NCBI GenBank assembly: GCA_934133175.1 | Contig: CAKPAX010000001.1 | Location: 28,387-92,386 of the forward strand | Direction: 5' to 3' | DNA length: 64,000 nt | Source: an uncultured Clostridia bacterium | GTDB taxonomy: Bacteria > Bacillota > Clostridia > TANB77 > CAG-508 | Part shown: positions 690 through 57,420 of the stretch, in pieces | Layout: each line of letters opens with the position of its first letter | Numbering within the stretch: the stretch's first letter is position 1 | Notes under the pieces: model-generated | What the model was told of the DNA's origin: nothing | What the model saw: the letters and a program-made list of their open reading frames with translations, nothing else | Databases searched by the model: none | Program-made: the position numbers and the translations under genes

Positions 690-703
690 AGAAAGGACAA
701 AAA

Positions 704-1495
704 ATGGAATTTATTAAATCAGTATTCAAAAATAAAAAATTAATATTGCAATTAGGAAAAAATGATTTTAGAAATAGATTTGCTAGTACAAGCTTAGGAT
801 CATTATGGGGATATGTACAACCATTTATATATATGTTTACATATGTAATAGTATTTCAATATATTTTAAAAACAGGAAGTGCAGGTAATGATCCATATCT
901 AGTTTGGTTTTTACCAGGTATGGCAATGTGGATGTGTGTAAATGATTCTATAATGAGTGCAAGTAGTTCAATAAGAAATTATAGTTACTTAGTAAAAAAA
1001 GTAGTTTTTCCAGTTGATATTATACCTGTAATTTCAATTGTTGCAACAGCATTTATATCATTATTTTTATTTGCAATAGTTATAGTTGTATGTTGTGCAT
1101 TTCGTTATGTTCCAAACTTTTTAATGATATTATATATATTAATTAGTGCATATGCATTTATAATATCAATAACAAGATTTACATCTGCACTTTCAACATT
1201 AGTACCTGATTTTTCACAATTACTAGGTGTTATAATGCAGTTATGTTTTTGGTTTACACCAATTGTATGGAATTTAAGTATGTTAAATGGACATCAAAAA
1301 TTACTTACATTATTTAAGTGCATGCCATTTACATATTTAGTAACTGGATTTAGAGATGCATTTATAGAAGGAAATATAGTATTAGAACAACATGGATTTT
1401 ATACAATTGTATTTTGGTTAATAACAATTGTTATGTTTGTATGGGGAAATTATATATTTAAGAAAAATAAAAAAGATTTCGCAGATGTGTTGTAA
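704..1495 (+). CDS. ABC-2 type polysaccharide/teichoic-acid export permease (Wzm/TagG-like)
   Basis: 263 aa with about 6 hydrophobic helices, directly upstream of a TagH/Wzt-like ATPase. Size and topology are typical of ABC-2 glycan exporters. Confidence 0.8.
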   Translation: MEFIKSVFKNKKLILQLGKNDFRNRFASTSLGSLWGYVQPFIYMFTYVIVFQYILKTGSAGNDPYLVWFLPGMAMWMCVNDSIMSASSSIRNYSYLVKKVVFPVDIIPVISIVATAFISLFLFAIVIVVCCAFRYVPNFLMILYILISAYAFIISITRFTSALSTLVPDFSQLLGVIMQLCFWFTPIVWNLSMLNGHQKLLTLFKCMPFTYLVTGFRDAFIEGNIVLEQHGFYTIVFWLITIVMFVWGNYIFKKNKKDFADVL

Positions 1496-1576
1496 ACAAT
1501 TATGAACATTTTATAATATTTTTATATTTTTACTGCGAAAATATGAAAATATTAATTAAGAAATGAGGAAAAAATA

Positions 1577-2896
1577 ATGGATAAAACTGATAATGATACA
1601 GTAATAAAAATAGAAAATTTAACAAAAGAATATAAAATGTTTGCCAGAAAAAAAGATAGATTTTTAGAAACTATAATTCCTGGATATACAAAACATGGAG
1701 TTTTTAAAGCTTTAGATAACTTTTCTTTAGAAATAAAAAAAGGAGAAGTATTAGGAATACTTGGAAAAAATGGTGCTGGTAAATCAACTTTATTAAAAAT
1801 AATAACAGGTGTTGTAACACAAACTAGTGGAAATATAGAAGTAAATGGAAAAATAAGTTCACTTTTAGAGTTAGGTGCAGCATTTAATCCAGATCTTACA
1901 GGACTTCAAAATATATATCAACATGGTCAAGTAATGGGATTAACTAAAGAACAAATTGAAGAAAAAAAACAAGATATAATAGATTTTGCAGACATAGGAG
2001 ATCACTTATATCAACCAGTTAAAACTTATTCTTCTGGTATGTTTGCACGTTTAGCATTTGCTTGTGCTATAAATGTTGAACCAGATATTTTAATTGTAGA
2101 TGAAGTTTTATCTGTTGGAGATATGGCATTTCAATTAAAATGTTTTAAAAAATTCGAACAATTTAAAGAAAAAAATAAAACAATAATTTTTGTAAGTCAC
2201 AGCATTAATGATATCTTAAATAATTGCAACAGAACAATAATATTAGACTCTGGTAAAAAAATATTTGACGGTGGGGTAAAAGAAGGAGTAGACAATTATA
2301 AGAGATTAATAACAGGAATGTTAAGTGACAAAAACAATGAATTTAGCAAAAAGAAAGAAAAAGAAAAATTAAAAGATGAAAAAGTTGCAGTTAGTATTGA
2401 TGATGAAAATACTGAATGGAAAAAATATTTTACAGTAAATCCTGATATGTTAACATATGGTAATAAAGAAGCTGAAATAATAGATTTTGGTATGTTTAAT
2501 TCAAAAGGAGAACCTGTAACATTATTAGATAGTCAAGAAGAAATAACAGTAAAAGTAAAAGCGATATTTTATAAAGATATAGAATGTCCAACATTTTCAA
2601 TGACAATTAAAAACTTTAATGGAAAAGAAATGTGTGGAACAAATACAAGTTTTAGAAATGTATATACAGGACTTTGCAAAAAAGATGAAACTTATATATG
2701 TGAATTTAAACAAAAATTCAAATTAGCTCCAGGAAAATATACAATCTCTTTAAGTTGTAGTAGATATGATGCAAATGGAGAAATAGTTGTTATAAATAGA
2801 AATTATGATGCTTTGATATTTGAAACAATGTCAACAACACCAATAGTTGGGTGCTTTGATATAGATACAATAATAGATTTTAAAAAAGCAAATTAG
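1577..2896 (+). CDS. glycan-export ABC transporter ATP-binding protein with C-terminal Wzt-type carbohydrate-binding domain
   Basis: Walker A GKNGAGKST, signature YSSGM, Walker B ILIVDE. An extra ~170-aa beta-rich C-terminal domain (from about nt 2400) follows, as in Wzt/TagH proteins that recognise capped glycans. Confidence 0.9.
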   Translation: MDKTDNDTVIKIENLTKEYKMFARKKDRFLETIIPGYTKHGVFKALDNFSLEIKKGEVLGILGKNGAGKSTLLKIITGVVTQTSGNIEVNGKISSLLELGAAFNPDLTGLQNIYQHGQVMGLTKEQIEEKKQDIIDFADIGDHLYQPVKTYSSGMFARLAFACAINVEPDILIVDEVLSVGDMAFQLKCFKKFEQFKEKNKTIIFVSHSINDILNNCNRTIILDSGKKIFDGGVKEGVDNYKRLITGMLSDKNNEFSKKKEKEKLKDEKVAVSIDDENTEWKKYFTVNPDMLTYGNKEAEIIDFGMFNSKGEPVTLLDSQEEITVKVKAIFYKDIECPTFSMTIKNFNGKEMCGTNTSFRNVYTGLCKKDETYICEFKQKFKLAPGKYTISLSCSRYDANGEIVVINRNYDALIFETMSTTPIVGCFDIDTIIDFKKAN

Positions 2897-2906
2897 GAGA
2901 AAAAAT

Positions 2907-4127
2907 ATGCAAGAAATTCATTTATTTATATTATGGGAAAATGCATTGGACCAAAAACAAGAAATTTTAAAAGATATGCAAGAAAGTTTTGATATTCTTG
3001 GTATGTATAATATAACATGGAGTAAAGAAAAATTTTCTGAAAACTTATCAAGATTTTATGGAACAAATTTACCCAAAGGTTGCGGAAAAGAAGAACATTG
3101 TGGAAATGGAACATTTTTACTTGTTGTAGTTAGATGTAATAATTCTAAATATGAAGATAGAGATACATCAAAAGGAATTCAAAGAGTAAATACATCTATG
3201 TTTGATAAAAAAACATATTATAGAGAATTAACAGGTGGAGGACATAGAGTACATGCAACAAATTCAGAAATAGAAACAAACCATGATTTAACATTATTAC
3301 TTGGTAAATCAATAAAAGATTTTGTTAAAGAAAATAATTCTTGGGATGGTAATGAAATAAATTTACAAAAAGATTTATTTGGGGCTAATGGATGGAGTGA
3401 TGCAAAAGAAATGTTTTATGCATTAAACAATTGCATAAATTATGCATTACTTAGAAATTATGAAACATTACCAGAAGAAATATATGTAAATGAACACAAT
3501 GATATAGATATAATATGTGATTCGTTTGAAAATGCAGCATATGTATTAAATGCAAAAAAAGTTTTTAATGAAGAATATAGAGTTCATTATAAAGCAATGG
3601 TTGGACAAGGTTTTGCAAACTTTGATTTAAGATACATTGGAGATGACTATTATTTTAAACAATTAGAAGAAGATTTATTAAAAACAAAAATATATAATGA
3701 AAAAGGTTTTTATACAATATCTAATGATTATTATTTTTACACATTGTTATATCATGCGTTATTGCATAAGCCAAGTTTTTCAGAAGATTATAAAAATAGA
3801 TTATCAAAAATGAATAAAGAGTTTGGAAATTTGGAAAATGAACGACAATATTTAGAAATGTTGCAAAAATGGTTAATACAAAATGAATACATTGTAACAA
3901 AACCAATAGATAAATCAGTTCAGTTTAATAAGGAAAATGCAAAAAGATTATCACCATTAGTATATAAAGACAATTCTAGTATGGAAGAAGCAATAATACA
4001 AAATGAAGAATTAAAAAATGAGAACAAAAGATTAAGAGAAGAATTAGTAAGTGTTTATAATTCTAAAAGTTGGAGAATAACAGAAGTTTTAAGAAAGATA
4101 TCAAAAAAGATAAAAAATGGGGATTGA
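2907..4127 (+). CDS. hypothetical protein with C-terminal coiled coil; possible glycan chain-terminating/capping enzyme
   Basis: SD site AGGAG 8 nt upstream. The central NEHNDIDIICD weakly resembles a nucleotidyltransferase-fold DxD. The C-terminal heptad-like segment ends NSKSWRITEVLRKI, a motif shared with the next gene. Confidence 0.6.
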   Translation: MQEIHLFILWENALDQKQEILKDMQESFDILGMYNITWSKEKFSENLSRFYGTNLPKGCGKEEHCGNGTFLLVVVRCNNSKYEDRDTSKGIQRVNTSMFDKKTYYRELTGGGHRVHATNSEIETNHDLTLLLGKSIKDFVKENNSWDGNEINLQKDLFGANGWSDAKEMFYALNNCINYALLRNYETLPEEIYVNEHNDIDIICDSFENAAYVLNAKKVFNEEYRVHYKAMVGQGFANFDLRYIGDDYYFKQLEEDLLKTKIYNEKGFYTISNDYYFYTLLYHALLHKPSFSEDYKNRLSKMNKEFGNLENERQYLEMLQKWLIQNEYIVTKPIDKSVQFNKENAKRLSPLVYKDNSSMEEAIIQNEELKNENKRLREELVSVYNSKSWRITEVLRKISKKIKNGD

Positions 4128-4132
4128 TTTGT

Positions 4133-5971
4133 ATGAAATTAAATTTAGATTTTTATAAAAATGAAATAAAATATAATGAATTATCTAGAGAAGAATTTTT
4201 AATAAATAATTACATAGGAAATTATAAAGAAGATGAATATGGAAAAATTATAGAAAGAGATAATAGTATAGAAAGTTTATATACATTATCAGATATGAGA
4301 AAAAATATAATCAATTGGTATCCATTTGAAAAAGATTGTACAATCTTAGAAATTGGTGCAAATTTAGGGCAAATAACAGGAGAACTTTGCAAAAATGCAT
4401 CAAAAGTAGTTTCGGTTGAATTTTCTAAGTTAAGGGGACAAGCAATTGCTAAAAGACATAGTGACAAAAAGAATTTAGAGGTTATAGTTGGAAATCTAAA
4501 AGATATTAAGTTTGAAGAAAAGTTTGATTATATAACTTTAATTGGAATTTTAGAATATGCGCCAATTATATATCAAACAGAAAATCCATATGAAGATTTA
4601 TTAAAATTCTTGAGTACATTACTTAAAGATAATGGAAAGATGTTAATTGCAACAAATAATAAATTTGGTATGAGAAATTGGGCTGTTATAGATTCAAATG
4701 ATAGAAACTTAGAGTATGATGCTATAATTTCTAAAATGGATAGTAAAAAGAGTCAGTATCTTTCTAAAAAGATGATTGATAAATTAATACAAAAAGTAAA
4801 TTTAGGACAAGCAAAATATTATTATCCACTTCCAGATTATGAATATGCAAATGTAATTTTTACAGATAAGTTTTTACCAAATAAAAATAATATTCATAGA
4901 AATATGACATTTTTTAAAGACAGTTATATAGTAAATTTTCATGAGAATAATGCCTATTTACAAATAATTGAAGAAGATGAAAATTTATTTAAATTTTTTG
5001 CAAATTCATATTTTATAGAAGTTGGTAAAAACTTTAAAGAAAACAATATAAAATATGTATCTTTCTGGAACAATAGAAAGCCTGAATATAAATTAAAAAC
5101 CATAATGGAAGAAGATAAAGTTTATAAATATCCAGAAAATGAACTTGCAAAATCTCATATCGAGAAAATAAAAAACAATATAGATGTTTTAAATAAAGCA
5201 AACATTAAAGTTTTAGATCAATATGATGAAGAAAAAATTATAAGCAATATTATAACAGAAGCTAAGCCATATGATGAATATGTTTTAGAAGAGGGGAATA
5301 AAAACGGGATAGATGGAATTATTAAAGCAATTAATAATTTTAAAGGAAAAATATTAGATAAATTAGAAATAACCAATAATGTTAATAATGTATTTGATAA
5401 TTATGGTATTTTTTATAAAAAAGAAGAAATAAAAGATTTAACTTTTGTAAAAAATGGTCTATGGGATTTAAACTTTCAAAATTGTTTTATAAAAGACAAT
5501 GAATTATTCATATATGATCAAGAATGGGAAGATGATAAAATACCATTAGAATTTATTATATATAGAGGAATAGAAATTTTTACACAATTAAGAAATATTA
5601 TAAATACAAATGAATTATATGAAAAATTAGGTTTACAAAAATATAAATCATTATTTGACAGATTAGAAGAAAAAATAGATGGTAAAATATATGATAATTC
5701 AATACGTCTCGCAAATCATAGACCCATGAAAAATGTAAGAGGATTTATTGTTGAAAATAGTGATTTAAAAACCAAAAATATATTTTTAAGTAGTGAACTT
5801 CAGAAATTAGAAAAAGTAAATAATATAACAGAAGAAGAAATTAGTAAAATGAGAAAACAAATCGAAAATCAACAAAATACAATAAATGAAATTGAAAATT
5901 CAAAGGGATGGAAGTTAACATTAAAAATAAGAAAAGTGGTTTCTTGTTTTAAAAGAAAAGAGGAAAAATAA
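4133..5971 (+). CDS. class I SAM-dependent methyltransferase with long C-terminal coiled-coil extension (WbdD-like architecture)
   Basis: Contains ILEIGANLGQITGELC...VVSVEFS (SAM-binding motif I region). The C-terminus is a coiled coil ending NSKGWKLTLKIRKV. I prefer the ATG at 4133, just after the upstream stop, to the track start at 4070, which overlaps the previous gene. Confidence 0.7.
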   Translation: MKLNLDFYKNEIKYNELSREEFLINNYIGNYKEDEYGKIIERDNSIESLYTLSDMRKNIINWYPFEKDCTILEIGANLGQITGELCKNASKVVSVEFSKLRGQAIAKRHSDKKNLEVIVGNLKDIKFEEKFDYITLIGILEYAPIIYQTENPYEDLLKFLSTLLKDNGKMLIATNNKFGMRNWAVIDSNDRNLEYDAIISKMDSKKSQYLSKKMIDKLIQKVNLGQAKYYYPLPDYEYANVIFTDKFLPNKNNIHRNMTFFKDSYIVNFHENNAYLQIIEEDENLFKFFANSYFIEVGKNFKENNIKYVSFWNNRKPEYKLKTIMEEDKVYKYPENELAKSHIEKIKNNIDVLNKANIKVLDQYDEEKIISNIITEAKPYDEYVLEEGNKNGIDGIIKAINNFKGKILDKLEITNNVNNVFDNYGIFYKKEEIKDLTFVKNGLWDLNFQNCFIKDNELFIYDQEWEDDKIPLEFIIYRGIEIFTQLRNIINTNELYEKLGLQKYKSLFDRLEEKIDGKIYDNSIRLANHRPMKNVRGFIVENSDLKTKNIFLSSELQKLEKVNNITEEEISKMRKQIENQQNTINEIENSKGWKLTLKIRKVVSCFKRKEEK

Positions 5972-5973
5972 TT

Positions 5974-7872
5974 ATGAATGAAAAAAAGAGAATTAGAGAT
6001 ATATTATTTCCAGAGGGAAGAAAATTAAGAAATTTTTTAAGATTATTAAATAAAATAATTAAAAATTTGAATGCTCAGAATATTAAAAAATTTTTAAAAT
6101 TGGCAAAACAAAAAGGAGTTATAAAAGCCTTAAAAGACACTAAAAATATATTATCAGGAAGAGTTGAAGTAGATAGAAAAACAACTTATCAAAAATGGAT
6201 AGAAGAAAATGAACCAACAGAAGCAGAATTGGAAGAACAGAGAAATACTAAATTTAAAGTAAATCCAAAAATAAGTATATTAGTGCCACTGTTTAATACT
6301 CCAGTAAATTTCTTTGATGAATTAGTTCAATCATTAATAGATCAAACATATAAAAATTGGGAACTTTGTTTGGCAGATGGAAGTGAAACTCAAAATCCAG
6401 AATTAATGAAAATAGTGGAAAAAGATTCAAGAATAAAATACAAATTTATGAATGAAAACAAAAATATTGCGGGAAATACAAACGAATGCCTAACATTAGC
6501 AACAGGAGATTTTATAGCATTACTTGATCATGATGATTTACTTCCAATATTTTCTTTGTATGAAATAGTGAAGGCTATTAACGAAAATCCAGGTGTTGAA
6601 TTTATATATACAGATGAAGATAAAATAATGAGAGTAAAAGAAAATAGAGTAGACCCATATTTTAAACCGGATTTTTCACCAGATACTTTAAGAGCAAATA
6701 ATTATATAACACATTTTAGTATTTTTAGAAAAGATATAATGGACAAACTTGGAGGGGAAAGAAGCAAATATGATGGAGCACAAGATTATGATTTGATTCT
6801 TAGAATGTCAGAAATTGCAAAAAATATTGTTCATATTCCCAAAATATTGTATCATTGGAGAATACATCCAAATTCAACAGCAGAAATGCCAGATGCAAAA
6901 CCATATGCTTATGAAGCGGGAAGAAAAGCAGTAGAAGATCATATTGAAAGAATAGGATTAAAAGGAACAGTTGATTTTGGAGAAACACCTGGAGTATATC
7001 AAGTGCAATATGATGTTATAGGAAATCCAAAAGTTTGTATATTAATTCCTAATAAAGATGCTGTTGAAACATTAAAAACTTGTATAAATTCATTATTAAA
7101 ATATACTACATATAGTAATTATGAAATAGTTGTAATAGAAAATAATAGTACAGAAAAAGAAACATTTGAATATTACGAAGAAATAAAGAAAAATCCTAAA
7201 GTTAAAGTAGTGTATTATCCAATAAAACAATTTAATTATTCTGGAATAATTAATTATGGAGTTAAGAATTGTGATGGTGAATATGTTTGTCAATTAAACA
7301 ATGATACAGAATTAATCACTCCTAATTGGATAGAAAAAATGTTAGGTTTTGCTCAACAAAATGACATTGGAGCAGTAGGGGCAAGATTATATTATCCAGA
7401 TGGTTCAATTCAACATGCTGGAATTGTTGTAGGGATTTGTGGATTAGCTGCAAATATGTTAACTGGACTTCCAAAAGGAAATCATGGATATTTTGCTAAA
7501 GAAGGCTTAATTCAAGATATGAGTGCTGTTACAGGAGCTTGTCTATTTAGTAGAAGAGATATATATGAAAAAGTTGGATATATGGATGAAGAAAATTTTG
7601 TAGTAGCATTTAATGATGTTGATTTTTGCTTAAAAATAGGACAACTTGGAAAACATATAGTGTATAATCCTTTTGTTGAATTTTGGCATTATGAATCAAA
7701 AACAAGAGGATATGAAGATACACCAGCTAAGAAAGAGAGATTTGAAAGAGAAAGTAATAACTTTAAAAATAAATGGAAAGATTTTATTGCAAAAGGTGAT
7801 CCATATTATAATATTAATTTAAGAGATGATACAGCACAATATGAAATAAAAAATTATAAAGTAACAAAATAA
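5974..7872 (+). CDS. two-domain family-2 glycosyltransferase (likely polymerising GT)
   Basis: Two GT2 signatures: ISILVPLFNTP...DHDD and VCILIPNKDAVE...NNDTE. Confidence 0.85.
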   Translation: MNEKKRIRDILFPEGRKLRNFLRLLNKIIKNLNAQNIKKFLKLAKQKGVIKALKDTKNILSGRVEVDRKTTYQKWIEENEPTEAELEEQRNTKFKVNPKISILVPLFNTPVNFFDELVQSLIDQTYKNWELCLADGSETQNPELMKIVEKDSRIKYKFMNENKNIAGNTNECLTLATGDFIALLDHDDLLPIFSLYEIVKAINENPGVEFIYTDEDKIMRVKENRVDPYFKPDFSPDTLRANNYITHFSIFRKDIMDKLGGERSKYDGAQDYDLILRMSEIAKNIVHIPKILYHWRIHPNSTAEMPDAKPYAYEAGRKAVEDHIERIGLKGTVDFGETPGVYQVQYDVIGNPKVCILIPNKDAVETLKTCINSLLKYTTYSNYEIVVIENNSTEKETFEYYEEIKKNPKVKVVYYPIKQFNYSGIINYGVKNCDGEYVCQLNNDTELITPNWIEKMLGFAQQNDIGAVGARLYYPDGSIQHAGIVVGICGLAANMLTGLPKGNHGYFAKEGLIQDMSAVTGACLFSRRDIYEKVGYMDEENFVVAFNDVDFCLKIGQLGKHIVYNPFVEFWHYESKTRGYEDTPAKKERFERESNNFKNKWKDFIAKGDPYYNINLRDDTAQYEIKNYKVTK

Positions 7873-7902
7873 AAGATGTAAAAAGAAAGGAAAAAACAAA
7901 AA

Positions 7903-8850
7903 ATGGATAAAATATCAGTTATAGTATCTTGTTACAATGAAGAAAAAGCATTACCATTATTTTATGAAGAAATGGAAAAAGTAAGAACAAAGGATTTTGA
8001 AGGAATTGATTTTGAATATATTTTTGTAGATGATGGCTCAAAAGATAATACATTAAAAGAAATTAAAGAATTAAAAGATAAGGATGATAAAGTAAGATTT
8101 ATTTCTTTTTCTAGAAATTTCGGTAAAGAAGCAGCCATGTTTGCAGGAATAGAAGCATGTACAGGAGATTATGTTACATTGATGGATGCAGATCTACAAG
8201 ATCCACCTGCACTCCTTAGAAAAATGTATGACACTATAAAAAATGATGGATATGATTGTGTTGGTACAAGGCGTGTTACAAGAAAAGGAGAACCACCAAT
8301 AAGAAGTTTCTTTGCAAGAATGTTTTATAAAATAATAAATAAAATGTCAGACATAGAAATGGTAGATGGAGCAAGAGATTATAGACTAATGACAAGGCAA
8401 GTAATAGAAGCTATAAAATCACTAAAAGAATATAATAGATATTCTAAAGGGTTATGGAGTTTTGTAGGATTCAAAACAAAATGGCTTGAATATGAAAATG
8501 TTGAAAGAGTTGCAGGAGAAACCAAATGGTCTTTTTGGAAATTGTTTAAATATGCATTAGAGGGAATAACAGCATTTTCAACAACACCACTTATAATATC
8601 ATCAATTGTAGGAGTATTGTTTTGTTTGATTGCATTTATCATGATTTTAGTTATTGTTATAAGAACATTAGCTTTTGGAGATCCTACAAATGGTTGGCCA
8701 TCAATGGTGTGTATAATCTTTTTTGTAAGTGGTATCCAATTATTTTCTTTAGGGATAATAGGACAATATTTATCAAAGACATATTTAGAGGTTAAAGATA
8801 GACCTATTTATATAGTAAAAGAGACAGAAAAGGATTTTATTAATAAATAA
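7903..8850 (+). CDS. polyprenyl-phosphate glycosyltransferase (GT2, GtrB/ArnC-like)
   Basis: ISVIVSCYNEE, VDDGSKD and DADLQDPP motifs plus two C-terminal TM helices. Confidence 0.85.
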   Translation: MDKISVIVSCYNEEKALPLFYEEMEKVRTKDFEGIDFEYIFVDDGSKDNTLKEIKELKDKDDKVRFISFSRNFGKEAAMFAGIEACTGDYVTLMDADLQDPPALLRKMYDTIKNDGYDCVGTRRVTRKGEPPIRSFFARMFYKIINKMSDIEMVDGARDYRLMTRQVIEAIKSLKEYNRYSKGLWSFVGFKTKWLEYENVERVAGETKWSFWKLFKYALEGITAFSTTPLIISSIVGVLFCLIAFIMILVIVIRTLAFGDPTNGWPSMVCIIFFVSGIQLFSLGIIGQYLSKTYLEVKDRPIYIVKETEKDFINK

Positions 8851-8862
8851 GGGGGATTACAT

Positions 8863-10464
8863 ATGAAAATTAATAAAATAATTAAATTTATTTTAATAAT
8901 GCTAGTAAGTTTTTGCATAATTCAATTTTTACCAAATAATAGAGTTGAGGCTGCCTCAAAACCTAATCTAAAAGTGACCTATAGTTACGATTCTAAAAAA
9001 GATGTAGTAACTGTAAAAGTAAAATCAAATATAAAATTGAAAAAAAATAAACCAAGTTGGACTTTAAGTAAGAATAAAAAAACGTATTCAAAAAAATTCT
9101 ATGTAAACGAAACATATTCAACTAAATTTACAGCTCAAAATGGAAAAAGCAAAACAATAAAAATAAAAGTGAAAAAAATAAAAGGACCTAAAGTTACAGT
9201 TAGTTATAAATATGATAAAAATACAAATAAAGTAAAAGTTACAGTGAAGTCTAATAAAGAAATGAAAAAAAATAGTGTTAATAATAAGTGGATTTTAAGT
9301 AAAAACAAGAAAACTTTTACAAGAGATTTTTCTGTAAATACCAAATTTAATATAACAATAAAAGATAAGTATGGGAACAAAACTAAAAAAGGAATTAATG
9401 TTAAGGGAATAGATAAAAAGGGTCCACAAATGACTATAAAATATTTATATAATTCTACAAATAATACAGTTACAGTTATTGCAGTAGCTAATGAAGAATT
9501 AAAAAATACAAAGCCTAGTTGGACTTTAAGTACAGATAAAAAAGTGTATACAAAAATATATGCAAAAAATGAAAAACAATATACAACAGAATTTCAAGAT
9601 AAATATGGAAATAAAACACAAACTAATATACAAATAACACAAATAGATGATATAGCTCCACAAGTGTCTATTTCAACAAAATATAATTCAGATAAAAGAT
9701 CTGCTGTTGTAAAGATATCATCTAATGAAGAATTGTATAATACAGATCCAACATGGAATATAAGTGGCGATAGAAAAACTTGTGAAATAACATATAAAAA
9801 AAATAATACATATAATCTTGTATTGCAAGATAAATGGGGAAACAAGACAAATAAAACTGTAAAAATATCAGGATTAATTGCAGTAGGAATAGATGTATCA
9901 CAACATAATAATAGAATAAATTGGGTAGAAGTAAAAAATGATGGGATTGATTTTGCTATGCTACGTTTAGGTTGGATTGGAAATAAAGAAAATCATACTT
10001 TAGATACATTTTTTAAAGAAAACTATGATTCTTGTAAAAAATTAAATATACATATTGGAATTTATGTTTATTCTTATGTGGAAAATGAAGAAGCAGCTAA
10101 AAATGCTGCTAAATGGACTGTAGAACAATTAAAAGATAAAAAAATAACATATCCTATTTATATAGACATTGAAGATGATCAAATTGAAAAATTAGATGTT
10201 CAAACTTTGACAAATATAACTAAAACATATTTGGAAGAACTAAAAACAGCAGGTTATAGTAAAGTGGGAATATATGCGAATAAAAACTGGCTTATAAATA
10301 AACTAGATATGTCTCAATTAGAGAAGTATGAAATATGGTTAGCACATTATACATCACAAACAGATTATTCAGGAAAGTATGATATGTGGCAATATACAAG
10401 TTCTGGTGATGTAAATGGAATACAAGGTAGAGTTGATATGGATTATAGTTATAAAACATATTAG
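8863..10464 (+). CDS. secreted GH25 muramidase (lysozyme) with four N-terminal ~78-aa repeats
   Basis: Signal peptide MKINKIIKFILIMLVSFCII...VEA. C-terminal GIDVSQHNNRINW...DFAMLRLGW...WLAHY...WQYTS is a GH25 catalytic-domain pattern. Confidence 0.8.
   Translation: MKINKIIKFILIMLVSFCIIQFLPNNRVEAASKPNLKVTYSYDSKKDVVTVKVKSNIKLKKNKPSWTLSKNKKTYSKKFYVNETYSTKFTAQNGKSKTIKIKVKKIKGPKVTVSYKYDKNTNKVKVTVKSNKEMKKNSVNNKWILSKNKKTFTRDFSVNTKFNITIKDKYGNKTKKGINVKGIDKKGPQMTIKYLYNSTNNTVTVIAVANEELKNTKPSWTLSTDKKVYTKIYAKNEKQYTTEFQDKYGNKTQTNIQITQIDDIAPQVSISTKYNSDKRSAVVKISSNEELYNTDPTWNISGDRKTCEITYKKNNTYNLVLQDKWGNKTNKTVKISGLIAVGIDVSQHNNRINWVEVKNDGIDFAMLRLGWIGNKENHTLDTFFKENYDSCKKLNIHIGIYVYSYVENEEAAKNAAKWTVEQLKDKKITYPIYIDIEDDQIEKLDVQTLTNITKTYLEELKTAGYSKVGIYANKNWLINKLDMSQLEKYEIWLAHYTSQTDYSGKYDMWQYTSSGDVNGIQGRVDMDYSYKTY
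8956..9870 (+). repeat. 4 tandem ~78-aa protein repeats (unassigned Ig-like/cell-wall-binding candidate)
   Basis: Recurrent pattern V-[ST]-Y.YD....V.V.V.SN..[LM]....P[ST]W.LS..KK.[YF]...[FY]......F.D.[YW]GN seen four times. Confidence 0.7.
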
Positions 10465-10470
10465 AGTAGA

Positions 10471-10510
10471 AAAAGACTATACAATAAAAATGAATGTATA
10501 GTCTTTTTTT
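10471..10510 (+). terminator. rho-independent terminator
   Basis: Stem aaaagactataca / tgtatagtctttt followed by a T-run. Confidence 0.75.
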
Positions 10511-10572
10511 GTGGAAATAATATCCTTTGACTGGCTTGAAATTGTCATGTTACAATAATATTGGGTGATATT

Positions 10573-12192
10573 ATGTTAAATAAAAGAAAGTATATTATTT
10601 TAATATTTTTAACATTTATATTTCTATTGCAAATAATATTTCCTAATAAAGTAAAAGCAAATGATAATATTACATTAACATATATATATAATAATGTAGA
10701 AAATAGTGTAACAGTAAAAGCTACATCTGAAATAGGTTTTAAAAATACAAAACCAACGTGGGAACTAGGAAAAAATAAAAAGGTATATATAAAGAAATAT
10801 AATAAAAATGAAAGATATGATACAACGTTTTTATTAATAAATGGGACAAGAAAATTAGTTAATATTAATGTTAACCAAATTGATGATAAAGGACCTCAAA
10901 TTATTACCAAATACATTTATGATAATCTTACAGATACAGTAACTGTAAATATGATTTCAAATGAAATAATGGCAGATACGAAGCCAACATGGAAATTAAG
11001 TGATGATAAACTTGTATATACTAAAAGATACAATAAAAATCAAAATTATATAACAGAAGTAAAAGATGTGTATGGAAATATAAGTAAAGTAAATATAGAT
11101 GTTACTCAAATAAATGGACCAAATATAGAAATGGAATATGTATATAATAAACAAAATAATACAGTAACTGCAAAAATGAAATCAAATAAAATATTAGCTA
11201 ATACAAAACCAACGTGGAAATTAAGTGATGATAGATTGATATATACAAAAACATTTAATAAAAACGAAATGTATTATACACCTGTGCAAGATACTTTTGG
11301 AAATAGTAAAATGGCAAAAATAGAAATAACTCAAATAGATGATAAAGGACCTGAAATAGAAGTTATATATACATATAATGAAAAAAGTGGAATTGTTACT
11401 GTTGATATGAAATCAAATGAAATAATAGCAGATACAAAGCCAACGTGGAAATTAAGTGATGATAAATTAACATATACAAAAAGTTTTAATGAAAATCAAA
11501 ATTATATAACAGAAGTAAAAGATATATATGGAAATATTACAAAGGTGAAAATCTCTATAACACAAATAACAAAGAAAGTTTTTAATGGAATTGATGTATC
11601 TGTATATCAAGGAACAATAGATTGGACAAAAGTTAGTGAATCTGGAATTGATTTTGCTATGATAAGAGCCGGATATAGAGGATATGGTGATAAAGGAAGT
11701 TTAGTAGAGGATACAATGTTTGCCAAAAATGCATTAGGAGCGAAAATAAATAAAATAGATATAGGAGTGTATTTTTATTCTCAAGCAATAAATATAGAAG
11801 AGGCAAAAGAAGAAGCAAAATTTGTAGTAAGTTTAATTAAAAAATATGGAATAGATGTAAAATATCCTATAGCAATAGATACAGAATTATCTCCAATGGG
11901 GACAGGAAGAGCAGACAATATTTCAAAAGAAAAGAGAACAGAAGTAGTAAAGGCTTTTTGTGAAACTATTAAACAATTAGGTTATAAACCAATGATTTAT
12001 GCTAATAAATATTGGCTATATGATAATTTAAATGTACAACAAATAAGTCAATATGACATTTGGCTTGCACATTATATAGAAAGTACAGATTACAAGTATC
12101 AATATATGATGTGGCAATACACGAATACAGGAAAAGTTGATGGTATAACTGGAAATGTAGATAAAAATTATTGTTATAAAAAATATAATTAG
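10573..12192 (+). CDS. secreted GH25 muramidase paralog with four copies of the same repeat
   Basis: Signal peptide; repeat core TKPTWKLSDDKL.YTK..N.NQNYITEVKD.YGN; C-terminal GIDVSVYQGTIDW...DFAMIRAGY...WLAHY...WQYT (GH25). The ATG at 10573 is preferred over the TTG at 10561. Confidence 0.8.
   Translation: MLNKRKYIILIFLTFIFLLQIIFPNKVKANDNITLTYIYNNVENSVTVKATSEIGFKNTKPTWELGKNKKVYIKKYNKNERYDTTFLLINGTRKLVNINVNQIDDKGPQIITKYIYDNLTDTVTVNMISNEIMADTKPTWKLSDDKLVYTKRYNKNQNYITEVKDVYGNISKVNIDVTQINGPNIEMEYVYNKQNNTVTAKMKSNKILANTKPTWKLSDDRLIYTKTFNKNEMYYTPVQDTFGNSKMAKIEITQIDDKGPEIEVIYTYNEKSGIVTVDMKSNEIIADTKPTWKLSDDKLTYTKSFNENQNYITEVKDIYGNITKVKISITQITKKVFNGIDVSVYQGTIDWTKVSESGIDFAMIRAGYRGYGDKGSLVEDTMFAKNALGAKINKIDIGVYFYSQAINIEEAKEEAKFVVSLIKKYGIDVKYPIAIDTELSPMGTGRADNISKEKRTEVVKAFCETIKQLGYKPMIYANKYWLYDNLNVQQISQYDIWLAHYIESTDYKYQYMMWQYTNTGKVDGITGNVDKNYCYKKYN
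10660..11575 (+). repeat. 4 tandem ~76-aa protein repeats, same family as 8956-9870
   Basis: Near-identical nucleotide blocks (acaaagccaacgtggaaattaagtgatgataaa) recur at about 10975, 11210 and 11440. Confidence 0.75.
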
Positions 12193-12221
12193 AGTTATAA
12201 CTAACTCTAATTATATTTTTT
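12188..12221 (+). terminator. rho-independent terminator
   Basis: Stem attagagtt / aactctaat with a downstream T-run. Confidence 0.55.
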
Positions 12222-12284
12222 ATAAACACTTGTAATTTTTTATAATAATTTATATAATTACAAAAAATGATAAGGTGGATTTTT

Positions 12285-14312
12285 ATGAAAGATATAATTA
12301 TACAAAATATAGAAGATATAAAATTAGTTTTAGTATTTTTTATAGTATTTTTTGTTATATTTTTGTTATATTTATTAAAAAGGGAATGGTTCGAAAAAAT
12401 ATATAAACATAGATTTTGTGTTGCTTTAGTGGTATTTGTTTTATGTGTTGTATTTGAAATAAGCGGATCATCAATTGGAATATGGAATATATATTTAAAT
12501 AATGGAGAAAAAGAAGATGGAGTAATAGTAGGAGAGTCTAAAACGATTAGATCTGACGAATGGGCAGTAAACACTCCGATGGCTTATTCACAAAAATTTA
12601 ATGATTTTGGATATTTTAGTGATGTAATAAGAGGAACTGCCACAGATGTTTTTATAGTATATGGACAACCTGTAAAGGACATAGGAATTATATATAGAGC
12701 ATTTCAAATAGGATATTTGTTATTTGGAACGTCAAAAGGTCAAGCTATATTTTGGTGTGGAAGGTTTATTGCTTTATTTTTAATAACATTTGAATTTATG
12801 TTATTAATTACAAAAAGAAAAAGAGGAATATCTTTTATTGGAACTATTTTAGTTTCGTTTGCACCTGTTATTGGTTGGTGGTTTGCAATAAATGGACTTG
12901 TAGAAATGATAATTGCAGGTCAACTTGCAATTATATTGTTAGATAAGTACATGTTGAGTCAGCAATATAAAAAAAGGTTGTTATATTTATTTGGAATGGT
13001 AATATCAGCAGGAACATATTTACTTACTTTTTATCCTTCATGGCAAATACCATTTATATATGTTTTTGCAGGTCTAGCATTATGGGTATTAATAAAAAAT
13101 TGGAAGAACTGTAAAATTAATAAAAAAGATATATTTACAATAATTACTTTTGTAGTATTATTTTTAATTTCAATTATATATATTTTTACAAAATCATTAG
13201 ATACAATAAAGAGTGTTTTAAATACGGTATATCCAGGAAGTAGAGTTGTAACTGGTGGAGGGGAGATATGTAAATATTTTTCATATGCTATAAATCCTTT
13301 TTTCTGGGAAAAGGATGTAATACAAAAGGTTGTTAATGGAAAAATTATTGCAAGTAATGTATGCGAAGAAGCGGTATTTTTTGATTTATTTCCTATAGGA
13401 TTCATAACTTCTTTTATAATACTATTTAAACAGAAATATAAAGATAAATTATTAATAATATCTATAATTGTTTCAATAATACTTGGAACATGGTGTATTT
13501 TTGGATTCCCAGAAATTTTGGCAAAAATTACATTACTTAGTAATTCACAAGCATCAAGATCTATAATAGCTGTAGGCTTTTTAAATATAGTAATTTTAAT
13601 AAGAAGCTTAGCATTAATAGAAAAACCTGTTAAAAGAATAATTAGTGGTGTTTTATCAATATTAATTGCTGGAATAATTGTTTTTATTAACAAAATAGTT
13701 TATTTAGATTATATTGGAGATATAATAACATTATCAACATTAGTATGTTTAAGTATTATTTTTTATTTAATATTAAGATATAATTTCAAATATAATAAAT
13801 ATATTTTAACATTTATTTTATTAATAATAGTGTTATTTTCTGGAGCAACTGTTAATCCAATAAGAAAAGGAGTAGGAGAAGTATATGATTCTGAATTAAT
13901 TAATAGGATACAAGAAATTTCACAAAATGATAACAGATTGTGGATTGTGGAAGGAAATGGGCTTCCATATAACAATATACCAATAATGGCAGGAGCAAAA
14001 ACTATAAATTCCACAAATGTATATCCTATTTTAGATAGATGGAAAATCTTTGATAAAAACGGTGAAAATGAAAAAATCTACAATAGATATGCACATATAA
14101 CAATAAATTTAACAAATGAAAACAAAATAGAGTTTAAACTTACTTCTCCAGATGCTTTTACTGTAAATTTAAATATTGACGAATTATCAAAGCTTGATGT
14201 AAAATATATCTTGGCACTAAGAGATTTAAGTGGTTATTCAAATGATAAAAAAGATTTGAAAAAAATCTATGAATATAATAATTATGAAATATATGAAATA
14301 AAGGAGAAATAG
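12285..14312 (+). CDS. large polytopic membrane protein, putative GT-C-type glycosyltransferase
   Basis: More than 12 predicted TM helices plus a ~150-aa soluble C-terminal domain. It sits immediately upstream of GtrB-like and GtrA-like genes (three-component decoration logic). The ATG at 12285 has SD AAGGTGG; the track start at 12267 does not. Confidence 0.6.
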   Translation: MKDIIIQNIEDIKLVLVFFIVFFVIFLLYLLKREWFEKIYKHRFCVALVVFVLCVVFEISGSSIGIWNIYLNNGEKEDGVIVGESKTIRSDEWAVNTPMAYSQKFNDFGYFSDVIRGTATDVFIVYGQPVKDIGIIYRAFQIGYLLFGTSKGQAIFWCGRFIALFLITFEFMLLITKRKRGISFIGTILVSFAPVIGWWFAINGLVEMIIAGQLAIILLDKYMLSQQYKKRLLYLFGMVISAGTYLLTFYPSWQIPFIYVFAGLALWVLIKNWKNCKINKKDIFTIITFVVLFLISIIYIFTKSLDTIKSVLNTVYPGSRVVTGGGEICKYFSYAINPFFWEKDVIQKVVNGKIIASNVCEEAVFFDLFPIGFITSFIILFKQKYKDKLLIISIIVSIILGTWCIFGFPEILAKITLLSNSQASRSIIAVGFLNIVILIRSLALIEKPVKRIISGVLSILIAGIIVFINKIVYLDYIGDIITLSTLVCLSIIFYLILRYNFKYNKYILTFILLIIVLFSGATVNPIRKGVGEVYDSELINRIQEISQNDNRLWIVEGNGLPYNNIPIMAGAKTINSTNVYPILDRWKIFDKNGENEKIYNRYAHITINLTNENKIEFKLTSPDAFTVNLNIDELSKLDVKYILALRDLSGYSNDKKDLKKIYEYNNYEIYEIKEK

Positions 14313-14313
14313 T

Positions 14314-15243
14314 ATGAAAAAAATTGCTGTATTAATACCATGTTATAACGAAGAGCTTACAGTAGAAAAAGTTATAAAAGATTTTAAAAGAGAGCTCCCA
14401 GAAGCGGATATATATGTTTATGATAATAATTCGAAAGATAAAACAGCAGAAATTGCAAAAAATGCAGGAGCAATTGTAAAACATGAATATAGACAAGGAA
14501 AAGGAAATGTTGTAAGAACAATGTTTATGGACATTGATGCTGACATATATGTTATGGTAGATGGGGATGACACTTATCCAGCAGAAGAAGTTCATAAGCT
14601 TATAAAACCAATTGAAGAAGAAAGAGCGGATATGGTTATAGGTGATAGACTAACAAATGGAACATATCAAAAAGAGAATAAAAGACATTTTCATGAATTT
14701 GGTAATAATTTAGTTAGAAAATCTATAAATGTATTATTTAATACAAAATTAAAAGATATAATGACAGGATATAGAGTATTTAATAAAAAATTTGTAAAAA
14801 ATATGCCTGTATTAAGCCCAAAATTTGAAATAGAAACAGAAATGTCTTTGCACGCATTAGATAAAAAATTTATAATAGAAGAAATTCCAATTGTATATAG
14901 AGATAGACCAGAAGGAAGTACATCTAAGTTAAATACAATAGGTGATGGAATAAAAGTTGTAAAAACAATAGTAAAAATGTTTAAAGATTATAAACCACTA
15001 AAATTTTTTGGAGTAATTGCAGGAATATTATTTATAATAGGACTAGCCTTTGGAATTCCAGTTATAGTAGAATTCTTTAAAACTAGATATATAACAAAAG
15101 TTCCAACAGCAGTTTTAGCTACAGGAATAATGATTTTATCAGTAATAATAGGACAATGTGGAGTTATATTAGACACAGTTGTTAAACATCATAGAGAATC
15201 TTATGAATTAAATTTATTAAGATATAAACAATTAGAAAAATAA
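14314..15243 (+). CDS. polyprenyl-phosphate glycosyltransferase (GT2, GtrB/CsbB-like)
   Basis: IAVLIPCYNEE, YDNNSKDKT and VDGDDTY motifs with C-terminal TM helices. Confidence 0.85.
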   Translation: MKKIAVLIPCYNEELTVEKVIKDFKRELPEADIYVYDNNSKDKTAEIAKNAGAIVKHEYRQGKGNVVRTMFMDIDADIYVMVDGDDTYPAEEVHKLIKPIEEERADMVIGDRLTNGTYQKENKRHFHEFGNNLVRKSINVLFNTKLKDIMTGYRVFNKKFVKNMPVLSPKFEIETEMSLHALDKKFIIEEIPIVYRDRPEGSTSKLNTIGDGIKVVKTIVKMFKDYKPLKFFGVIAGILFIIGLAFGIPVIVEFFKTRYITKVPTAVLATGIMILSVIIGQCGVILDTVVKHHRESYELNLLRYKQLEK

Positions 15244-15265
15244 AAAACATTGAAAGGAAAACAAA

Positions 15266-15697
15266 ATGAAAAAAATAATTGAATTAATAAAAGCACTATG
15301 TATAAAATATAAAGAATTAATAATGTATGGGATAATGGGAGTGCTATCAACAATTGTAAATATCGCATCATTTACTATATTTGAGAAAGTATTTGGAATT
15401 CCAGCATTAATTAGTAATGTAATAGCTTGGATTATAACTGTAATCTTTGCATATATAACAAACAAATTATATGTATTTGAAAGTAAAAGCTTTAAAAGAG
15501 ATGTATTAATAAAGGAAATTTTATCATTCACATCTGCAAGAATATTCTCATTATTATTAGAAGAAGCAATACTATATGTATTAATTGATTTAATGAATGT
15601 AAACTCAATAATAACAAAAATATTCTCAAACATAGTAGTTATAATAGTAAATTATATTTTGAGTAAATTAGTTATATTTAAAAAAGACAAAAAATAA
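15266..15697 (+). CDS. GtrA family membrane protein (lipid-linked sugar translocation-associated)
   Basis: 143 aa with 4 TM helices. The YGIMGVLSTIVNI...NKLYVFES pattern is typical of the GtrA family. Confidence 0.8.
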   Translation: MKKIIELIKALCIKYKELIMYGIMGVLSTIVNIASFTIFEKVFGIPALISNVIAWIITVIFAYITNKLYVFESKSFKRDVLIKEILSFTSARIFSLLLEEAILYVLIDLMNVNSIITKIFSNIVVIIVNYILSKLVIFKKDKK

Positions 15698-15712: not shown

Positions 15713-17405
15713 ATGAAACAAAAGAATAAAATTTTTGAAAGTGGAATTACATTAATAGCATTAGTTATAACAATAATAGTTTTGCTAATACTTGCAGGTG
15801 TTACAATAAATATGTTGACTGGTGAAAATGGTATATTAAAACAAGCAACAAATGCAAAAGATGTATCAGAAAAATCAGAATTTGAAGAACAAGTAAGATT
15901 ATCAGTAATAGCTTCAAAAATGAATAATTCAGCAAGAATTAATTTGGATGAACTAGATACAGAATTAAAAAAAATAAGTGGAGTTACAGAGAAAAATATA
16001 AATAAACAAGGTGAAAACGGCAAATTACCATGGATAGTAACTAAAGGAAAAAATTCTGTAACAATACAACCAGAAGAAAACACAGATGAAAAAAATTCAA
16101 GTGAAGATAAAGGTGATGTAGAAGAGGGATGGGTGAATGAGCCTAAATTAATTACTGGAATGACACCAATTTATTGGGATGAGAATAACACTGAAATAAT
16201 AGTGACAGAAAGTAATAAAGATAAATGGTATAATTATAAACAAAAAAGATGGGCCAATGCTAAAACAGAAGATGGGAGTTATTGGGTATGGATACCAAGA
16301 TATGAATATTCTATAGATTCAAATACTAAAAAAATAAATATAAAATTTATAAAAACCACTCAAACAACAGTGGATGATAATTATACATATATTCATCCGG
16401 CATTTAGAAATGGAACTTTAACAAATTTTCAAAATGGTGAATGGGATGAAGAAATACCCGGATTTTGGGTAGCAAAATATTCAGCAGGTTTTCAGAGTTG
16501 TTCAACAGATATAAATGGAAATAATATAAATGAAACAGATACAATTAAGTATTCAACTTCTAAATATACAGGTTTTAGTAATTCTTGTAAAACAAATGCA
16601 TTAGGGCAAAATCTGACAGAAGAAGGAAATGAAAAAATATCATATCCGGTATTTAAACCTTTAACTTATTCTTATAATAATATAAGTGTAGGAGATTGTT
16701 ATACAATATCACAAGAAATTGACAGTGCAGTATCATTTTATGGTTTAAGTGGATATAATAATTCAAGTCATTTGATGAAAAATAGCGAATGGGGAGCGGT
16801 AGTATATTTAACACAGAGTAGTTATGGAAGAAATGGTACGGAAGTAACAATAAATAGTAGAAATTTAAGTGATTTAGATTCTAAATTAATATATACAGTA
16901 ACTGGATATGCTGGAAATACAGCTTTGGGAACAGATGCAAGTAGTACGAGTGATATGAGTCGGAGTATTTGATTTAAATGGTGGAGTATGGGAAAGAATG
17001 GCAAGTTATGTATCAAATGGAAATCAAAATTTAGGCACATATGGATCATCATTTGTGAATACAATACCAAACCCAGAAGCTTATAAAACTTTAAGTAATA
17101 AATATATTACAGTTTATCCATATAATTCTTCTAGTGATACAATACTTGAAAATTGGAGAACTTATAGTAATTTGAAGTATGGATATGGTGATTCAATATT
17201 AGAAGTATCAAAAATTATAGAAGAAAAAACTGAAAATTGGAATGGAAAAATAATAAATTATGCATACTCAGAGTGGCCATTTTTTGCTTATGGTGGAATA
17301 GAAGATGATGACAATTCAAGTGCAGATATGTTTGGATTGGCATGTACTTATGGAGGTCCACATATTACTCGTGGATTTCGCGTATGTTTAACATTTGAAG
17401 AATAA
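15713..17405 (+). CDS. prepilin-like N-terminus + FGE/SUMF1-like domain protein, split by a +1 frame change at the CGG codon 16961-16963
   Basis: N-terminus MKQKNKIFESG/ITLIALVITIIVLLILAG. The track shows two pieces (15713-16972 and 16998-17405). The +1 frame is open from 16959. Joining gives DMS-G-VFDLNGGVWE and a C-terminal RGFRVCL, both FGE-sulfatase-like signatures. Confidence 0.75.
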
Positions 17406-36322: not shown

Positions 36323-36351
36323 AAAGAACACTTGAAAAGTGTTCTTTTTTG
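36323..36351 (+). terminator. rho-independent terminator
   Basis: Stem aagaacac / gtgttctt plus TTTTTT. It overlaps the -35 of the pgk promoter. Confidence 0.75.
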
Positions 36352-54262: not shown

Positions 54263-54449
54263 TTCTTTTATAATATTACCTAAAATTTATTGTTATTTTT
54301 TTGTAATGATATAATAAAAATAAAATAAAGTATTGAAAAAAATTAAATGTATAGATATAATAAAAACAATTATTTTGTTGAAGATGTTTGGTCAAATTAA
54401 TGTATTATAGAATTTGTACACAAACGTGAAAAAGAAGGGAATGATAAAA

Positions 54450-57382: not shown

Positions 57383-57420
57383 AAATAAATTCTATGTAAA
57401 AGCATAGAATTTATTTTTTA
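57383..57420 (+). terminator. rho-independent terminator
   Basis: 14-bp stem aaataaattctatg / catagaatttattt plus a T-run. Confidence 0.75.

Follow-up and report, generated by a model that had tools for sequence, protein, structure and literature searches.

In a 64,000-nucleotide (nt) stretch of contig CAKPAX010000001.1 from an uncultured Clostridia bacterium (the window), three genes share an N-terminus that resembles the class III (prepilin-type) signal peptide of type IV pilins. We consider it fairly likely that their products are modular type IV pilins, from a gut Clostridia lineage that is uncultured and very rich in A+T. In each protein a class III signal peptide would precede a short pilin module, onto which a ligand-binding cargo with the FGE-sulfatase/C-type-lectin fold would be grafted; in the third paralog this cargo would take the form of repeats derived from an FGE-like fold plus fn3-like units. 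The proteins are modular in architecture, their N-terminal module is homologous to a pilin encoded in a type IV pilus (T4P) operon of related genomes, and genes of this kind co-occur with the T4P gene set in those relatives.

The open reading frames (ORFs), their leaders and the hydrophobic N-terminal helix that follows (alpha1N) are positioned in the window as follows.

15713–16972, + strand: paralog 1, first reading frame, 419 aa
15713–15745, + strand: leader of paralog 1, MKQKNKIFESG
15746–15802, + strand: hydrophobic alpha1N of paralog 1, ITLIALVITIIVLLILAGV
34766–36247, + strand: paralog 2, 493 aa
34766–34798, + strand: leader of paralog 2, MKQNNRRLDKG, with alpha1N from 34799
55141–57366, + strand: paralog 3, 741 aa, with a TTG start behind GGAGG
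55141–55155, + strand: leader of paralog 3, MKNKG, with alpha1N from 55156

The leaders, of 11, 11 and 5 residues, are rich in Lys, Arg and Asn and end in Gly at position -1 of the putative cleavage site. All three proteins then continue with ITLIALVITIIVLLILAGV.I.MLTG[ED]NG[IL]L, with Ile at +1, Thr at +2 and Ala at +5 (Ala5), so that the prepilin-like N-terminus with Ala+5 and Ile+1 described in an earlier note on this DNA is present in every one of the three ORFs. A six-frame motif search found exactly three copies in the window, and a degenerate DNA pattern for the 19-residue core gave three matches there against none in 100 dinucleotide-preserving shuffles. Over the 20 codons from Gly(-1) to Val+19 the paralogs differ by synonymous changes only at 12 and by amino-acid changes at none; over a 32-codon stretch, 17 codons show synonymous-only differences and four an amino-acid change. 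These synonymous-only differences indicate that the N-terminal peptide is under purifying selection, as the earlier note had also concluded, and is not the product of a recent DNA duplication.

To follow the N-terminus outside the window, a DNA-pattern scan with position 5 left free was run on one genome per GTDB species. It gave at least 119 stretches from at least 90 assemblies, and the assemblies listed are all metagenome-assembled genomes (MAGs) of uncultured gut "Clostridia/Clostridium sp." with 21–33% G+C; sources among the matches listed are human, mouse, rabbit, chicken and ruminants. At least 122 motif-bearing ORFs are present in the matches listed, and they come from no fewer than 90 species-level MAGs. 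Among these 122 ORFs, position +5 is Ala in 117, Thr in 2, Ser in 2, Val in 1 and Glu in 0; position +1 is Ile in all; and at position -1 there are 116 Gly and 6 Ala. The same ORFs fall into two size classes, one pilin-sized (125–164 aa mature) and one large (~350–830 aa).

Paralog 2 has at least 7950 homologues in a large protein collection, all unnamed and none with a precomputed Pfam domain. In 118 orthologues with 53–68% overall identity (a further one is 98% identical), the first ~45 mature residues are nearly invariant and Ala5 is kept in 117 of the 118. A homologue search with the 40-residue N-terminus alone returned short fragments only and was uninformative on cargo. Our literature search for the motif string found no publication containing it.

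The type IV pilus operon of related genomes

The earlier note had proposed a distinct signal family that works without pilus machinery. The absence on which this drew is real: tblastn with the operon proteins of relatives found no PilB, PilC, PilD, PilT or PilM homologue in the window (E > 0.09), and the precomputed Pfam lists, which cover ~5.7–64 kb of the window and 10 kb beyond each end, contain no pilus genes. The proposal itself is not supported, as relatives carry the identical N-terminus on a pilin within a T4P operon, and we attribute the missing machinery in the 64 kb to the limits of the window. Small Ala5 pilins sit in this otherwise canonical operon in at least 10 loci (L013, L047, L063, L077, L093, L103, L109, L114, L115 and L117), in the following gene order.

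First gene: PilM/N-like protein, 540 aa (PilN, E 0.011)
Second and third genes: two small membrane proteins
Next: one or two Ala5 pilins (Pfam N_methyl, 22.3 and 23.0 bits, above the cut-off of 21.2)
Next: PilD-like protein, 271 aa (A24_N_bact, E 1e-30)
Next: two minor pilins, G|FTGID (Asp5) and then G|(I/V)TL(I/T)(S/T) (Ser/Thr5)
Next: PilB (T2SSE, 2e-102, plus MshEN)
Next: PilT (T2SSE, 9e-44)
Last gene: PilC (two T2SSF domains, 5e-29)

The operon pilin of locus L093 matches all three window proteins (E ~1e-17) and aligns to paralog 2 over 125 aa at 41% identity. From this alignment, the N-terminal homology of paralog 2 is seen to span the whole pilin module and not the signal alone. The parts of paralog 2 are as follows.

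34766–35137, + strand: pilin module, aa 1–124
35138–36247, + strand: cargo, aa 125–493, an FGE-sulfatase/C-type-lectin-fold domain ending GFRVALY
36323–36347, bidirectional: terminator-like hairpin after the gene

In an AlphaFold2 (AF2) model of paralog 2, the N-terminal module (aa 1–123) forms one helix at residues 6–36, helices at 41–67 and a four-stranded sheet at 91–123. The predicted local distance difference test score (pLDDT) of the head (aa 51–120) was 73–87, in a full-length model built from close homologues only and with an overall pLDDT of 60; Foldseek with this whole model returned nothing meaningful.

At least four MAGs carry both the T4P operon and a large dispersed Ala5 gene.

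Lapin-012__bin16: operon at L115, large gene at L034
BRZ_PC__bin97: operon at L103, large gene at L055
UBA3678: operon at L047, large gene at L048
BRZ_DD__bin29: operon at L063, large gene at L050

A search for the motif and for pilus genes beyond the window, which the earlier note had suggested, located both in related MAGs, and found no pilus genes in the source genome as covered by the window and its 10 kb flanks. The note had named a canonical pilus operon that processes these proteins as the observation that would speak against its own proposal. The operon with the identical N-terminus in related MAGs comes most of the way to such an observation; that an operon of this kind processes the window proteins is a prediction from these relatives.

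Within the operon, tandem duplicates of the small Ala5 pilin gene are frequent. Between MAGs, the first 40 residues of the small Ala5 pilin are 81% identical, and the remainder is 23% identical and Ser/Thr-rich. Upstream lies a conserved AT-rich region with a strong ribosome-binding site (RBS). Between this gene and pilD there is a GC-rich hairpin (AGCCATACGCACAC-loop-GTGTGTATGGCT, ~-20 to -26 kcal/mol) whose sequence is conserved across MAGs; it usually has no clean U-run and may be an attenuator or an mRNA 3' stabilizer. The genes for the Asp5 and Ser/Thr5 pilins are packed tightly behind pilD, in the style of minor pilins. The tandem duplicates, the variable head, the upstream region and RBS of its own and the hairpin, together with this packing of the other two pilin genes, suggest that the small Ala5 pilin is the major (shaft) subunit. 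The hairpin was located at five sites.

L114, 1445–1521: pilin/pilD hairpin
L093, 7005–7089, - strand: pilin/pilD hairpin
L117, 6667–6762: pilin/pilD hairpin
L103, 4831–4966, - strand: pilin/pilD hairpin
L109, 1259–1352: pilin/pilD hairpin

In the mechanism that we propose, the hydrophobic alpha1N helix would insert the large protein into the membrane, and the PilD-like protein of the lineage would remove the leader after the conserved Gly(-1). The T4P machinery, encoded elsewhere in the genome (PilB, PilC and PilM-N, with PilT for retraction), would lift the subunit from the membrane. The subunit would then join pili built from the small pilin with the identical N-terminus; its place would probably be the tip, or sparse sites along the shaft, and the cargo would be displayed on the pilus for adhesion. 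Of this path, the removal of the leader behind Gly(-1), the methylation, the role of PilB/PilC in extraction and the location of the subunit within the filament are predictions.

Cargo modules

An exhaustive search with residues 125–493 of paralog 2 gave 1863 representative homologues at E ≤ 1e-3, 304 of them at E ≤ 1e-30. When 106 of the cargo homologues were scanned, 49 matched Pfam FGE-sulfatase (PF03781) at E ≤ 0.01 (best E 6e-11) and 23 matched N_methyl. The cargo was modeled in AF2 with a deeper and more diverse alignment of the same residues, which gave a pLDDT of 95.6 and a predicted TM-score (pTM) of 0.94. Foldseek matched this model in the PDB to FGE, the FGE paralogue pFGE, TaqVP and TvpA (variable proteins of diversity-generating retroelements, DGRs), PorK, PvdO, EgtB, OvoA and CarF, with probabilities of 0.97–1.0 and E values from 3e-4, at low TM-scores of 0.28–0.37; nearly every one of the strongest matches has this fold. 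As modeled, the cargo has an FGE/C-type-lectin-like fold, and at the level of fold the earlier assignment to an FGE/SUMF1-like, C-type-lectin-fold module is correct. None of the three window proteins has a Pfam match to FGE-sulfatase; the homologue at locus L034 matches it at 31.9 bits (cut-off 23.3).

FGE, TvpA, TaqVP, PorK and PvdO have their fold in common with the cargo of paralog 2, but the Cys pair of FGE is not conserved in that cargo. This catalytic pair (Cys-x4-Cys; C336/C341 in human FGE according to PDB titles) is not found conserved after the RGG motif in a 75-sequence consensus judged by eye, suggesting that the FGE-fold cargo is probably a non-enzymatic binding module. Other cargos, seen in 82 large family members, are Big_2, Flg_new, LRR_5, GLUG, RCC1, F5/8 type C, PKD and DUF285; the first seven of these are typical adhesin or binding modules.

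The region that is diversified in DGR variable proteins of the FGE fold is the C-terminal stretch before the G(F/L)R motif. Among the orthologues of paralog 2 (alignment A3), which are conserved elsewhere, variability is concentrated in a C-terminal stretch of ~40 residues ahead of the terminal G(F/L)R..LY, at ~36120–36244 of the window. A DGR target was considered and rejected: blastn of the 3' ends against the window found only the internal repeats of paralog 3 and no template repeat, and the Pfam lists of the window contain no reverse transcriptase family.

Some cargo homologues are giant proteins with 3–14 tandem copies of the FGE-fold cargo, with 6–14 copies in P0241 (5309 aa), P0246 (6477 aa), P0242 (3424 aa) and P0244 (3527 aa). 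P0246 begins with a variant pilin-like leader, KG|SITLFVLIAV. A second pilin-like leader type (KG|S(I/V)T(L/I)FV...) occurs on the cargo homologues P0248, P0253 and P0295, and on ORFs of 69–83 aa that adjoin large Ala5 genes.

L010, 4046–4255, - strand: small ORF with the second leader type
L107, 3968–4219, - strand: small ORF with the second leader type
L110, 3450–3668, - strand: small ORF with the second leader type

The missing Glu5, the PilD homologue and competing explanations

Glu5 is described as absolutely conserved in bacterial T4P, where it forms a salt bridge to the N-terminus of the neighboring subunit (PMC10710030, PMC10191384); it is thought to neutralize that N-terminus and to drive subunit docking (PMC10191384). 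Tip subunits alone lack it, namely GspK/PilK and PilA of S. sanguinis, because nothing sits above them (PMC9934059, PMC10191384). In ~0.9 Mb of related loci we found no class III-like N-terminus with Glu5; the sole acidic residue at +5 was the Asp5 of one operon pilin, kept in 6/6 complete cases of the class III scan. We are inclined, as part of the modular-pilin explanation and about as strongly, to regard Ala5 as a trait of the whole lineage, its presumptive major pilin included, and not as the marker of a different pathway.

Several observations weigh against modular pilins. With Pfam N_methyl (PF07963/IPR012902) the window proteins score 15.4 and 13.3 bits, with no match for paralog 1, all below the cut-off of 21.2, and the NCBIfam pilin models do not recognize them. 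A PDB sequence search with the family profile gave weak N-terminal pilin matches alone (Geobacter PilA-N, E 0.026; MshA, E 0.68). Glu5 is absent lineage-wide among the matches listed. The PilD-like protein has no Peptidase_A24 (PF01478) at E ≤ 10 (8/8), no NCBIfam match and no GxGD. The operon was not seen in the source genome, of which the window and ~10 kb on each side were read; the MAG loci fetched belong to other species than the window (best 74–84% nucleotide identity), and the flanks of the operon loci show no synteny with it.

The missing A24 signature makes leader cleavage less certain than the gene order suggests. What the PilD-like protein does have, in 8/8, is the N-terminal Cys-rich domain PF06750 (E 1e-30 to 2e-31), with CPxC...CxxC conserved. 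Its family comprises 4173 homologues, and the best 120 of these 4173 carry only PF06750; its profile against PDB sequences returned zinc-finger noise only. Acidic residues are still conserved in 'GID(K/L)E' and 'LDT(I/V)TLK', so the protein may yet be an aspartic peptidase; in L103 numbering, E128 and D176 are among the conserved acidic residues. The genes, encoding ~270 aa, are at the following places.

L103, 4015–4830, - strand: PilD-like gene
L114, 1522–2337: PilD-like gene
P0390–P0509: homologues of the PilD-like protein

With Glu5 missing, the large proteins also lack the salt bridge that is credited with driving subunits to dock into the growing filament (PMC10191384). Display could instead be pilus-independent or pseudopilus-like, with the signal cleaved by the PilD-like protein and the large proteins staying anchored by alpha1N or forming short wall-crossing stubs. 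The class III signal would then be a general surface-display route used by tens of proteins per genome, comparable to the archaeal bindosome sugar-binding proteins. Genes that are numerous and scattered (three in 64 kb, a fourth ~7.5 kb beyond, and at least 7950 homologues of paralog 2), very varied cargo and bulky cargo modules (350–830 aa) that are hard to fit along a shaft would all suit such a route. We nevertheless hold it to be unlikely. The same N-terminus is found on a pilin-sized protein whose operon also encodes PilT and PilM/N-like proteins, an indication that the pilus is real and dynamic, and paralog 2 retains a full pilin head homologous to that of the operon pilin. Furthermore, alpha1N is invariant residue by residue in at least 90 species, which packing of helices against one another in a filament would explain more readily than a mere anchoring role.

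The acidic residue of the Asp5 pilin (6/6 complete cases) allows a different assignment of the shaft. If the shaft were made of this protein (G|FTGID...), all Ala5 proteins, including the small operon one, would be initiator or cap pilins, like the known tip subunits without Glu5, above which nothing sits (PMC9934059, PMC10191384). This seems to us quite improbable, as the Asp5 gene lies directly behind pilD in the manner of a low-abundance minor pilin, whereas it is the small Ala5 pilin that is duplicated and has its own upstream region, a strong RBS, the hairpin and a hypervariable Ser/Thr-rich head like those of major pilins. The alpha1N of the Asp5 pilin also differs from that of the large proteins, which would leave the two without a shared packing interface.

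There is very little chance that the N-terminus is an ordinary uncleaved type II membrane anchor that resembles a prepilin by coincidence, even with sub-threshold N_methyl scores, a missing Glu5 and a sole candidate peptidase without the A24 signature, because an anchor requires hydrophobicity and not identity, whilst here ~25 residues stay the same from paralog to paralog and in at least 90 species as synonymous sites vary, position -1 is universally Gly or Ala, and the same sequence stands on a pilin in a T4P operon beside a PilD homologue.

Modular type IV pilins thus remain our preferred explanation, and they are a known kind of protein. Such pilins are established and widespread, and PilB and PilC of S. 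sanguinis carry binding modules (Raynaud et al., 2021, PMC8179133; Shahin et al., 2023, PMC9934059). Like the window proteins, these two combine a class III signal and a short pilin module with a grafted domain from outside pilus biology (vWA or lectin in their case); their host is monoderm, as are the relatives here, and has a type IVa pilus (T4aP)-like operon that includes PilT, with adhesion by pilus display as the expected role. They differ in having the canonical Glu5 and in being encoded inside the pil locus, whereas the Ala5 genes are dispersed and many per genome. The IPR012902/N_methyl signature used in the census of modular pilins misses most members of the Ala5 family.

The Ala5 proteins have the lack of an acidic residue at +5 in common with GspK/PilK and S. 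sanguinis PilA, and GspK also has an extra domain (PMC9934059, PMC10191384). However, those systems have one Glu5-less subunit each, encoded with H/I/J partners, and here the presumptive major pilin and nearly all paralogs are of this type. Archaeal class III proteins (pilins, archaellins and the sugar-binding proteins of the bindosome) are similar in that they have no Glu5 and in that the signal stands on diverse, dispersed extracellular proteins; processing of archaeal class III signal-peptide proteins by PibD is reported by Szabo et al. (2007), as cited in PMC10191384. The machinery found here is in contrast bacterial and T4aP-like (PilB with MshEN, PilT, PilC, PilM/N and the N-terminal Zn-ribbon domain of PilD), and the alpha1N, G|ITLIALVI, is closest to the bacterial consensus G|FTLIELLV. 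Among monoderms, the pilins of C. difficile and C. perfringens have Glu5 and their PilD is a recognizable A24 peptidase. The operon of the relatives differs from the loci of these two species on both counts, having neither Glu5 nor an A24-recognizable PilD. In gene content the loci are alike, with a monoderm T4aP set of pilin, PilD, PilB, PilC, PilM/N/O-like proteins and PilT (PMC6916266). The variant in this lineage, which is Glu5-less, very large, dispersed and accompanied by an atypical PilD homologue, is not known to have been described.

A broader proposal, which we make tentatively and regard as somewhat doubtful, is that the lineage has re-wired its T4P. This would comprise a shaft pilin and, scattered through each genome, tens of modular pilins that begin with Ile1...Ala5 throughout, a sole PilD homologue whose A24/GxGD signature is no longer recognizable, and the use of the pilin N-terminus as a general export and display tag for lectin-fold, leucine-rich-repeat, immunoglobulin-like and other binding modules.

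If pili of this kind do assemble, bacterial T4P would not universally need Glu5, and a T4P-type machine would serve these Clostridia as a main surface-display pathway. The lineage is natural and widespread in human, mouse, rabbit, chicken and ruminant guts, and it offers a direct test of whether Glu5 can be dispensed with and what replaces it: its presumptive major pilin and hundreds of modular pilins have Ala5, beside a PilD homologue without the usual peptidase signature. Because the Ala5 family is largely invisible to pilin signatures (sub-threshold for N_methyl, none in NCBIfam), censuses of modular pilins and of gut Firmicutes adhesins undercount it. For thousands of unannotated proteins from gut metagenomes, the result would indicate that they are probably located on pili or the cell surface and that they probably bind ligands.

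The window genes and their surroundings

The window has a G+C content of 25.8%, with nearly all genes on the + strand. Its housekeeping genes encode MutL, FtsK, GAPDH, PGK, TIM and NrdD, and the Ala5 genes are scattered among them (for example between gap and pgk). In the earlier note each Ala5 gene was taken to be monocistronic with its own terminator. A terminator-like hairpin does follow each unit; single-gene transcription is not established, with upstream genes 16 and 38 nt away from paralogs 1 and 3, respectively. For paralog 1 the hairpin exists but stands after 17405 and not after 16972.

16959–17405, + strand: continuation of paralog 1 in frame +1, listed as ORF 16998–17405, 135 aa
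17404–17438, + strand: terminator-like hairpin closing the paralog 1 unit, a 14-pair stem and then a T run

Downstream of alpha1N, paralog 1 encodes a pilin-like head and then the N-terminal two thirds of the FGE-like cargo ('WYNY..KRWAN..YWVWIPRYEY..GFWVAKY'). The gene is frameshifted near 16950–16975: the first frame ends ...SDMSRSI*, and frame +1, which resumes at ~16959, supplies the C-terminal third of the FGE-like domain (VGVFDLNGGVWE ... GFRVCLTFEE). An intact homologue at L080 has 548 aa, near to 419 + 135, and the paralog 1 homologue at L094 matches FGE-sulfatase (E 3e-4), showing that the cargo of paralog 1 is homologous. Paralog 1 is carried by 7 contigs, and the 419 + 135 aa split is seen in all three places shown, which argues that the frameshift is no assembly error. 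The gene could be a fixed pseudogene, its product could be truncated and lack the final third of the FGE fold, or the frameshift could be bypassed.

A GtrA-family gene ends 16 nt before paralog 1, with no terminator between them. Paralog 1 lies at the 3' end of a long cell-envelope glycopolymer cluster (window 1–15697, L129/L130), whose genes encode YfhO, PMT_2, an ABC-2/Wzt exporter, LytR-CpsA-Psr, several GT2 proteins, two GH25 muramidase paralogs, DUF7657 and GtrA.

The features of paralog 3 and of the ORF upstream of it are as follows.

54414–55103, + strand: upstream ORF, ~217 aa from an internal ATG, with a Sec-type signal peptide (MKKKKLMMITMALMLIITAKSTYA)
55885, 56512 and 57100, + strand: WYNY of the three tandem repeats of paralog 3, with periods of ~627 and 588 nt
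57387–57412, + strand: AT-rich terminator-like hairpin after paralog 3, AAATTCTATG-TAAAAG-CATAGAATTT and then a T run

This last hairpin was missed by the scan owing to its few G-C pairs. Each repeat of paralog 3 is related to the N-terminal 'WVWIPRYEY...GYW.(A/S)KYE' part of the paralog 1 cargo and continues into an fn3-like stretch. The upstream ORF matches FGE-sulfatase weakly (Pfam E 0.024), over the C-terminal half of that domain, and ends 38 nt before paralog 3, a gap so short that the two are probably co-transcribed. With the ORF resembling the C-terminal, FGE-like half and the repeats of paralog 3 the N-terminal part, they may be co-transcribed, complementary partners.

A fourth Ala5 paralog (515 aa, leader MKIKQAKG) lies ~7.5 kb past the 3' end of the window, at L131 17492–19039 (also L132 18821–20350). 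With it, the density of Ala5 genes is ~1 per 20 kb in the window and its extension. It adjoins a divergently oriented sortase gene (PF04203), so the organism also has the usual monoderm route of surface anchoring.

A phage origin of the motif was rejected, as just 3 truncated copies occur in 2.9 million viral contigs. The three fragments, on IMG/VR contigs L126 (170–222), L127 (14593–14645, - strand) and L128 (5637–5689, - strand), reach a stop codon 21 residues past the Thr+2 of the motif (...LILAGI(T/S).I*), and have the look of a truncated remnant that recurs, not of a phage gene.

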